A stretch of 44,926 nt of DNA, from contig CAYYFM010000073.1 in assembly GCA_964471375.1 (NCBI GenBank), forward strand, positions 1 to 44,926. Direction: 5' to 3'. Numbering within the stretch: the first letter of the stretch is position 1; every line of letters starts with the position of its first letter. Origin of the DNA: an uncultured Gammaproteobacteria bacterium. GTDB taxonomy: Bacteria > Patescibacteriota > Patescibacteriia > UBA9934 > GWF2-40-263. The translations under genes and the position numbers were made by a program. The notes below the pieces were generated by a model, which did no database searches, was not told the origin of the DNA, and was given only the letters and a program-made list of their open reading frames with translations. This document shows, piece after piece, positions 4,846 through 4,975 of this stretch.

Positions 4846-4975
4846 GACGGGACTAAAGTCCCTCTGAATTCCTAGCCACTTTAGTGGCGTCCAGTCCTGA
4901 CGGGACTAAAGTCCCTTTGAATTCCTAGCCACTTTTTTACCCACCGACGCTAAAGCTTTGGTGGGAGTGGCGTTC
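4846..4975. repeat. cluster of palindromic elements (two about 54-bp units; the second carries a nested CCCACC..GGTGGG hairpin)
   Basis: GACGGGACTAAAGTCCCT(c/t)TGAATTCCTAGCCACT occurs twice (4846-, 4900-). In the second unit the GCCACT..AGTGGC hairpin loop is replaced by tttttaCCCACCgacgctaaagctttGGTGGG (4934-4965). The cluster overlaps the 3' end of rsmI. Confidence 0.9.

Follow-up and report, generated by a model that had tools for sequence, protein, structure and literature searches.

Rickettsia palindromic elements (RPE) are said, after Ogata et al. 2000, to be selfish repeats that lie in frame in housekeeping genes and are translated as an extra peptide; no transposase is known for them. 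The small dispersed repeats (SDR) of Nostocaceae, attributed to Elhai et al. 2008, are reportedly mobile hairpins of 21-27 nt that nest in each other and in genes. SDRs are reported from Nostocaceae only (PMC5861425). REP/REPIN-RAYT systems (Nunvar 2010; Bertels and Rainey 2011, PMC3116915, PMC3337134) are built from imperfect palindromes of ~20 nt whose copy numbers range from tens to hundreds. These palindromes are arranged as inverted doublets with short variable spacers, fall into lineage-specific sequence types and surround a short (~500-bp) HUH/Y1 transposase gene within the repeat arrays (layout in PMC3337134). The inversion of a hairpin's loop by template switching is documented in perfect hairpins, bacteria included, and “loop inversion only” cases are described in bacterial rRNA (PMC8794818). 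Plastomes, too, harbour widespread inversions of 5-50 bp, with short inverted repeats at either end, according to Kim and Lee 2005 as cited in PMC12928735.

The repeats described here resemble REP/REPIN-RAYT systems in the repeat features listed above, and a RAYT-like gene within their arrays is a candidate for the transposase. The DNA under study, referred to as the window, is a stretch of 44,926 nt that forms contig C73 of a short-read MAG of 1.14 Mb in 98 contigs (98% complete). We label this source genome G000, and G000:Cn:x denotes position x of its contig n. In homologue searches, the nearest relatives of rlmN and rsmI belong to Candidatus Uhrbacteria (Patescibacteria / CPR), and the source species is represented on one contig only in the protein collection. 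An initial reading of the repeats as cyanobacterial SDR/HIP1 elements was dropped in view of these relatives and of HIP1 signals that are only modest. Searching the literature by repeat sequence gave no relevant match, and no paper linking RAYT or REPIN with Patescibacteria was found in our literature search, the host here being a CPR genome.

The outer repeat is a 23-nt REP-type element (A type) with the hairpin GCCAC-TTTA-GTGGC and the flanks TTCCTA...GTC. A sister type (B) forms the hairpin GGGAC-TTTA-GTCCC, and the two share one architecture, TTC..A-stem-TTTA-stem-GTC. The genome holds 45 copies of GCCACTTTAGTGGC (A) and 102 copies of GGGACTAAAGTCCC (B) in its 1.14 Mb, and the A and B hairpins usually alternate as inverted doublets with spacers of ~7 nt in a REPIN-like manner. 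Of eight same-genus genomes, six contain the GGGAC-TTTA-GTCCC type, and scattered copies occur further out. The outer element is asymmetric in its flanks, with TTCCTA at one end and GTC or GTT at the other, and was oriented accordingly. Positions 5695-5749 of the window, just upstream of rsmI, are a perfect (TAGGAA)x9 tandem repeat; the hexamer TAGGAA flanks the A-type hairpin as well. Three Y1-type transposase homologues were identified in the genome:

G000:C1:4519-5088 (= L093 1249-1818), minus strand in L093: RAYT-like HUH/Y1 transposase ORF of 189 aa with HYH and YVIGNPLKHG motifs
36178..37056 of the window, minus strand: weak IS200-like Y1 transposase homologue (PF01797, 20.6-21.5 bits, under the 23-bit cut-off), which is not the REP-flanked gene
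G000:C54:715-1422: further IS200-like homologue

The RAYT-like protein of 189 aa scores 54 bits (E = 1e-14) against NF047646, the model for REP-associated tyrosine transposases, which has a cut-off of 80, and 24 bits against PF01797, where the cut-off is 23. Its gene has hairpin arrays on both sides, with one composite (a hairpin nested in another, as described below) among them, and its start and stop both lie within these flanking arrays. The RAYT-like protein may copy the outer repeats, as its co-location with the hairpins would suggest.

Nested hairpins are present at three sites of the window, as the initial annotation of this DNA had stated. We refer to the form shared by two of them as canonical and to the third as flipped:

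4928-4971, plus strand: flipped composite, GCCACT-TTTTTA-CCCACC-GACGCTAAAGCTTT-GGTGGG-AGTGGC
4928-4933 and 4966-4971, plus strand: outer REP arms of the flipped copy
4936-4965, plus strand: 30-nt insert of the flipped copy, with a TTTA leader (4936-4939) and the inner hairpin (4940-4965)
4940-4945 and 4960-4965, plus strand: inner arms of the flipped copy, with the inverted 14-nt loop (4946-4959) between them
11777-11820, plus strand: canonical composite in rlmN, GCCACT-TTTTTA-CCCACC-AAAGCTTTAGCGTC-GGTGGG-AGTCCA
11777-11782, 11783-11788, 11789-11814 and 11815-11820, plus strand: 5′ outer arm, TTTTTA, inner hairpin and 3′ arm of the rlmN composite
11771..11853, plus strand: the rlmN composite together with a B hairpin, in frame within the gene
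44784-44827, minus strand: canonical composite, apparently intergenic, GCCACT-TTTTTA-CCCACC-AAAGCTTTAGCGTC-GGTGGG-AGTGGC, with more A and B hairpins after it
44790-44815, minus strand: inner hairpin of the preceding composite

Outer GCCACT..AGTGGC arms had been ascribed to all three copies. They are found at 4928-4971 and 44784-44827, and it had been overlooked that the outer 3′ arm at 11777-11820 is not AGTGGC but AGTCCA, which is B′-like and thus of the sister hairpin type. Hairpins that join an A-type 5′ arm (GCCAC) to a B′-type 3′ arm (GTCCC or GTCCA) occur at window positions 11815-11820 and at G000:C22:6466; such chimeras suggest exchange between the two repeat types. The central observation of the initial annotation is exact: at 14 of 14 positions, the loop at 4946-4959 is reverse-complementary to that of the other two window copies. 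With the outer elements oriented by their flanks, the loop alone differs, and the change appears as six simultaneous base differences. When folded as single-stranded DNA, the canonical and the flipped form are both predicted to adopt the nested hairpin (-11.0 and -12.3 kcal/mol; z = -3.8 and -5.0).

Aligning GCCACTTTAGTGGC to the composite yields a unique solution for the limits of the insert, which comprises 30 nt (TTTA plus the 26-nt hairpin CCCACC-N14-GGTGGG) between GCCACTTT and AGTGGC. An insert of this length maintains the reading frame. The empty intermediate GCCACTTTTTTAAGTGGC has 0 copies in the genome, and no free-standing inner hairpin exists in G000 outside the composites. The perfect palindrome TCCGCCAGAGGCGGATCCGCCTCTGGCGGA, which has GGATCC at its centre, is a second loop insert of 30 nt that is unrelated to the first and is present in 13 copies:

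G000:C17:310, C24:27862, C35:23262, C41:8043, C47:7036, C63:2633 and seven more positions: copies of the TCCGCCAGAGGCGGATCCGCCTCTGGCGGA palindrome

Every copy interrupts an A- or B′-type hairpin loop at CTTT^AG, the same site as that of the composite insert. Since two unrelated 30-nt inserts share one loop position, the loop is a preferred or tolerated landing site. The palindrome (D-type) was also considered as a second case of flipping and rejected, because its loop variants are single transitions that are silent on inversion. Nested element-in-element insertion, as initially proposed, is well supported by the unique 30-nt boundaries and by the membership of the inner hairpin in an independent family that is free-standing in many other Patescibacteria genomes.

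A genome-wide search returned 21 composites, 20 of them canonical and one, the rsmI copy, flipped. Thirteen of the 20 canonical composites are identical across 32 nt. The copy at 4928-4971 is the sole one in the genome with GACGCTAAAGCTTT on the strand that has TTTTTA 5′ of the hairpin; its arms (CCCACC/GGTGGG), junctions and flanks do not differ from those seen in the canonical 20. The flipped 32-mer has no second occurrence in the genome and none in 60 relatives. Those relatives, which include eight same-genus genomes, yielded no composite, and the composites therefore represent a recent, lineage-specific expansion. Scanning metagenome contigs for a composite with any loop gave 0 matches. 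In 12 of the 21 composites, a B hairpin lies ≤45 nt away on the 3′ side.

At least 13 of the 21 composites lie in frame within long ORFs, such as those for UvrA, UvrB, ValS, CysS, MurB, MurD, DnaX and RlmN. The genes concerned in the window are as follows:

4906..5652, minus strand: rsmI, 16S rRNA C1402 2′-O-methyltransferase, 248 aa from ATG, with a PF00590 match
4837..4975, minus strand: two REP doublets (A-type and B′-type hairpins) at the rsmI/metS junction
11351..12463, plus strand: rlmN, radical SAM rRNA/tRNA methyltransferase, which holds the second composite

The cluster at 4837..4975 gives RsmI its C-terminal tail and its stop codon, a TAG at 4906-4908 in a B′ loop. In alignment, RsmI orthologues of 224-234 aa are devoid of this tail, and the protein here has 19 extra residues. 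In the closest relative (88-90% amino acid identity), the rsmI/metS junction is repeat-free, and there is a 19-nt overlap between rsmI and the following gene. RlmN, compared with seven orthologues, carries a net insertion of 16 residues in a variable linker. Relatives provide empty sites for both rlmN and rsmI. The canonical composite is read as ...DATPTDAKALVGKKVARN... (PTDAKALVG) in UvrA, ValS, MurD, CysS, MurB, DnaX and one further ORF, and as ...FLATFLPTKALASVGVAS... in RlmN, a glycosyltransferase, a methyltransferase, a membrane protein and a HIT protein; in UvrB, the composite is read in a third frame. The RsmI tail, which reads ...APNATPTKALASVGKKVARNSKGL, is a chimera of both readings, NAT-PTKALASVG-KKVARN. 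It had been noted that the coding strand reads AAAGCTTTAGCGTC and yields PTKALASVG in both coding contexts of the window. The statement holds for rsmI on the minus strand and for rlmN on the plus strand, but it does not extend to a rule, given the seven genes that read PTDAKALVG and the third frame used in UvrB.

The inner hairpin extends well beyond the source genome. Allowing up to three mismatches, the 26-mer is found in one or two copies in each of 14 other genomes of the class. A relaxed motif, CCNCC-NN-AGCTTTAGCG-NN-GGNGG with at most one mismatch, matches 107 of 401 sampled genomes of the phylum, with 1-17 copies each, compared with one match for a reversed-motif control. Among 39 distinct copies, all six stem pairs are conserved, and two of these pairs show compensatory changes (C-G, T-A or T-G at one; G-C, A-T, C-G or T-A at the other). 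The AGCTTTAGCG core is essentially invariant across these copies, and the positions beside it form an internal loop of the GA/AA/AG or AC/AT/AG kind. The sequence YTGY precedes the hairpin on its 5′ side in 22 of 44 copies and occupies the opposite side in 1 of 44, where chance would place it in ~1.6%. TTAC in the composite is the counterpart of this 5′ flank; since it matches the position of YTGY, the insert brings the family's own 5′ flank with it. The family form over loci L095-L141 and the three window copies is YTGY followed by CCNCC-(G/A)(A/T)-AGCTTTAGCG-NN-GGNGG.

Four of the five same-genus genomes searched for the inner hairpin have one free-standing copy, and the two copies that could be placed are at different loci. 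Elsewhere, family members are found in spacers, near tRNA genes, within a group I intron and within long ORFs. Searches of 32 loci against Rfam returned no family for the inner hairpin, either at the gathering threshold or at E values up to 1. A terminator role was rejected, since T-runs follow some copies only, and a promoter role was rejected on account of a misfit in spacing. Y1 transposases occur in five of five motif-rich and three of five motif-free genomes, a comparison that is uninformative on any link to the inner hairpin. In a same-family genome (L109, G024:C48, positions ~800-960), a free-standing inner-type hairpin lies within a hairpin with a 15-bp stem, GGTAGCCCCAGGCTT...AAGCCTGGGGCTACC, inside an ORF of 833 aa that the opposite strand encodes; G000 is therefore not alone in having the inner-type hairpin nested. 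We tentatively propose, as a possibility that we would not yet favour, that the inner hairpin is a copy of an undescribed, phylum-wide family of ~30 nt defined by YTGY, a 6-bp covarying stem, the AGCTTTAGCG core and a GAA/GAA-type internal loop. Such an element might move by itself into single-stranded loops and genes or might serve as the recognition site of a conserved Patescibacteria protein, and in this genome it would have been captured by a REP and copied in frame into >12 essential genes. If this reading is true, the flip would show that the nested hairpin was extruded in vivo. The family, with its conserved core and phylum-wide distribution, is the most interesting by-product of the analysis.

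The flipped loop was probably produced by a single, neutral inversion across the 6-bp arms, via a template switch that took place after the composite had been copied to its present site; the event is known from one assembly. The 20:1 ratio in the genome marks the canonical orientation as the ancestral state, as does the fact that free-standing family members have the same orientation with respect to their 5′ flank. One very unlikely alternative is that a mobile 26-nt inner hairpin entered a TTTTTA-bearing outer hairpin at rsmI independently and in the opposite orientation. The inner family is indeed independent and sporadic in other genomes, genes included, and an unrelated 30-nt palindrome at the same loop site in 13 other repeats points to a preferred landing site. 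However, the conserved 5′ flank (YTGY, here TTAC), which is part of the insert, has not moved, the empty intermediate that this route requires has 0 copies, the junctions match the 20 canonical copies base for base, and G000 has no free-standing donor. It is this combination of an unchanged TTTA side, canonical junctions and the lack of an intermediate or donor that makes an insertion in opposite orientation so improbable. Selection on the protein is the least credible of the explanations that we considered. It holds that the loop was flipped or kept because rsmI requires PTKALASVG, the peptide present in both coding copies of the window, but seven other genes encode PTDAKALVG and UvrB uses the third frame, direct reading finds the unflipped sequence to be likewise open in rsmI, and the tail is a non-conserved C-terminal extension that orthologues lack. 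We see no selective reason for the flip.

There is also little chance that the loop flip-flops in the population through cruciform or hairpin recombination or an invertase-like activity, with the assembly having fixed one state per locus. Perfect inverted arms within a second stem favour hairpin extrusion, and plastid hairpin loops are described as flip-flopping in PMC12928735. A reversible process, however, would drift to a mixture, whereas 20 of 21 composites share one orientation, and the core of the phylum-wide family likewise keeps its orientation to the YTGY flank (22 of 44 copies, compared with 1 of 44 in the opposite arrangement and ~1.6% by chance). No invertase is tied to the element: no recombinase gene lies beside 4928-4971, where the neighbours are rsmI and a tRNA-synthetase gene, and the arms measure 6 bp where an invertase switch would call for ≥20-bp recombination sites. 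To our knowledge, a segment of 14-26 bp is too short for the synapses of known invertases. The hint of recurrent or ongoing flipping in the initial annotation accordingly finds no support in the counts, with one of 21 composites flipped, 0 of ~147 simple hairpins with a TTTA loop inverted relative to its flanks, and a chance-level frequency in the phylum-wide family, in which YTGY is on the wrong side in six copies (5 of 400 genomes) compared with an expectation of ~5 from ~335 copies. An artefact of library chemistry (strand switching at the hairpin) or of the assembler is equally improbable. The genome is a short-read MAG of 98 contigs whose species is found on a single contig in the protein collection, which gives some room for error, but the flipped 32-mer shares no common long k-mer path with the other copies, and the 6-bp stems are far below any assembly k, so that the graph cannot invert the loop. 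Moreover, the site is interior to a 44.9-kb contig with an otherwise intact reading frame, and chimeras formed in vitro would be minority reads, outvoted in the consensus. A large inversion between oppositely oriented composites was rejected by reasoning, since it cannot flip the loop alone.

Loop inversion between inverted stems, the origin suggested in the initial annotation, is thus the most parsimonious reading: the TTTA leader is unmoved, GCCACTTTTTTAAGTGGC is absent and the junctions are those of the 20 canonical copies. We picture its history as follows. One 30-nt unit (TTTA plus CCCACC-AAAGCTTTAGCGTC-GGTGGG) would have entered the single-stranded loop of an A-type repeat, at CTTT^AG, once in the lineage. 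Because its outer stem and flanks remained intact, the composite could still be copied as a REP, and it would then have multiplied to 21 copies, in either orientation and in frame in at least 13 housekeeping genes. One copy would have been placed at the rsmI/metS junction first, and the segment between CCCACC and GGTGGG would have been inverted once afterwards. In the template-switch route that we infer for this step, the nascent strand would quit its template at one arm, anneal to the complementary arm, copy the loop off the opposite strand and then return to its own template. This would invert the 14-nt loop and alter neither the TTTA leader nor the stems nor the outer element. The change is apparently neutral, as the rsmI tail is open in both orientations. 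Two dimensions speak against a template switch, namely the short stems (6 bp, against the 11-24 bp quoted for the repeats of plastid minute inversions) and the long loop (14 nt, against 4-8 nt in reported loop inversions of rRNA). As one event, the inversion gives no estimate of a rate.

The flip offers a clean natural case of probable loop inversion by template switching; it is illustrative, an ordinary mutation and not a new mechanism. It is outweighed in significance by the finding that a REP-type repeat can take on a foreign hairpin as its passenger and distribute it, in frame, among the essential genes of a minimal CPR genome. The passenger's family has a strictly conserved core, was found in roughly one in four of the Patescibacteria genomes sampled and appears in no catalogue that we searched. 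It provides a handle on what recognizes such hairpins in uncultured bacteria, whether a transposase, a nuclease or an RNA-binding protein.

With respect to described systems, the repeats here differ from known REP/REPIN-RAYT systems in three ways besides their CPR host. They are often intragenic and in frame, whereas known REPs are mainly extragenic; one REP type bears a 30-nt passenger hairpin in its loop; and the transposase scores under the curated RAYT cut-off (54 vs 80 bits). They share with RPEs the in-frame insertion of palindromes in conserved housekeeping genes, but RPEs span 100-150 bp, whereas the units here measure 23-83 nt and are accompanied by a RAYT-like gene. As in SDRs, very small hairpin repeats nest in each other and lie in genes as well, yet there is no sequence relationship between the two, and the host here is not a cyanobacterium. 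For the flip itself, the closest system is that of template-switch hairpin inversions (Monttinen and Loytynoja 2022, PMC8794818; E. coli quasipalindromes, PMC7202029), with which we group the plastid minute inversions (Kim and Lee 2005 via PMC12928735). The likeness lies in the exact reverse complementation of a loop between perfect arms, in stem and loop lengths that stay constant and in the appearance of the event as a cluster of simultaneous substitutions. What sets this locus apart is that a 14-nt loop has been inverted between 6-bp arms inside a mobile repeat, itself nested in a second hairpin, and that 20 sister copies in the same genome serve as an internal reference for the ancestral state.
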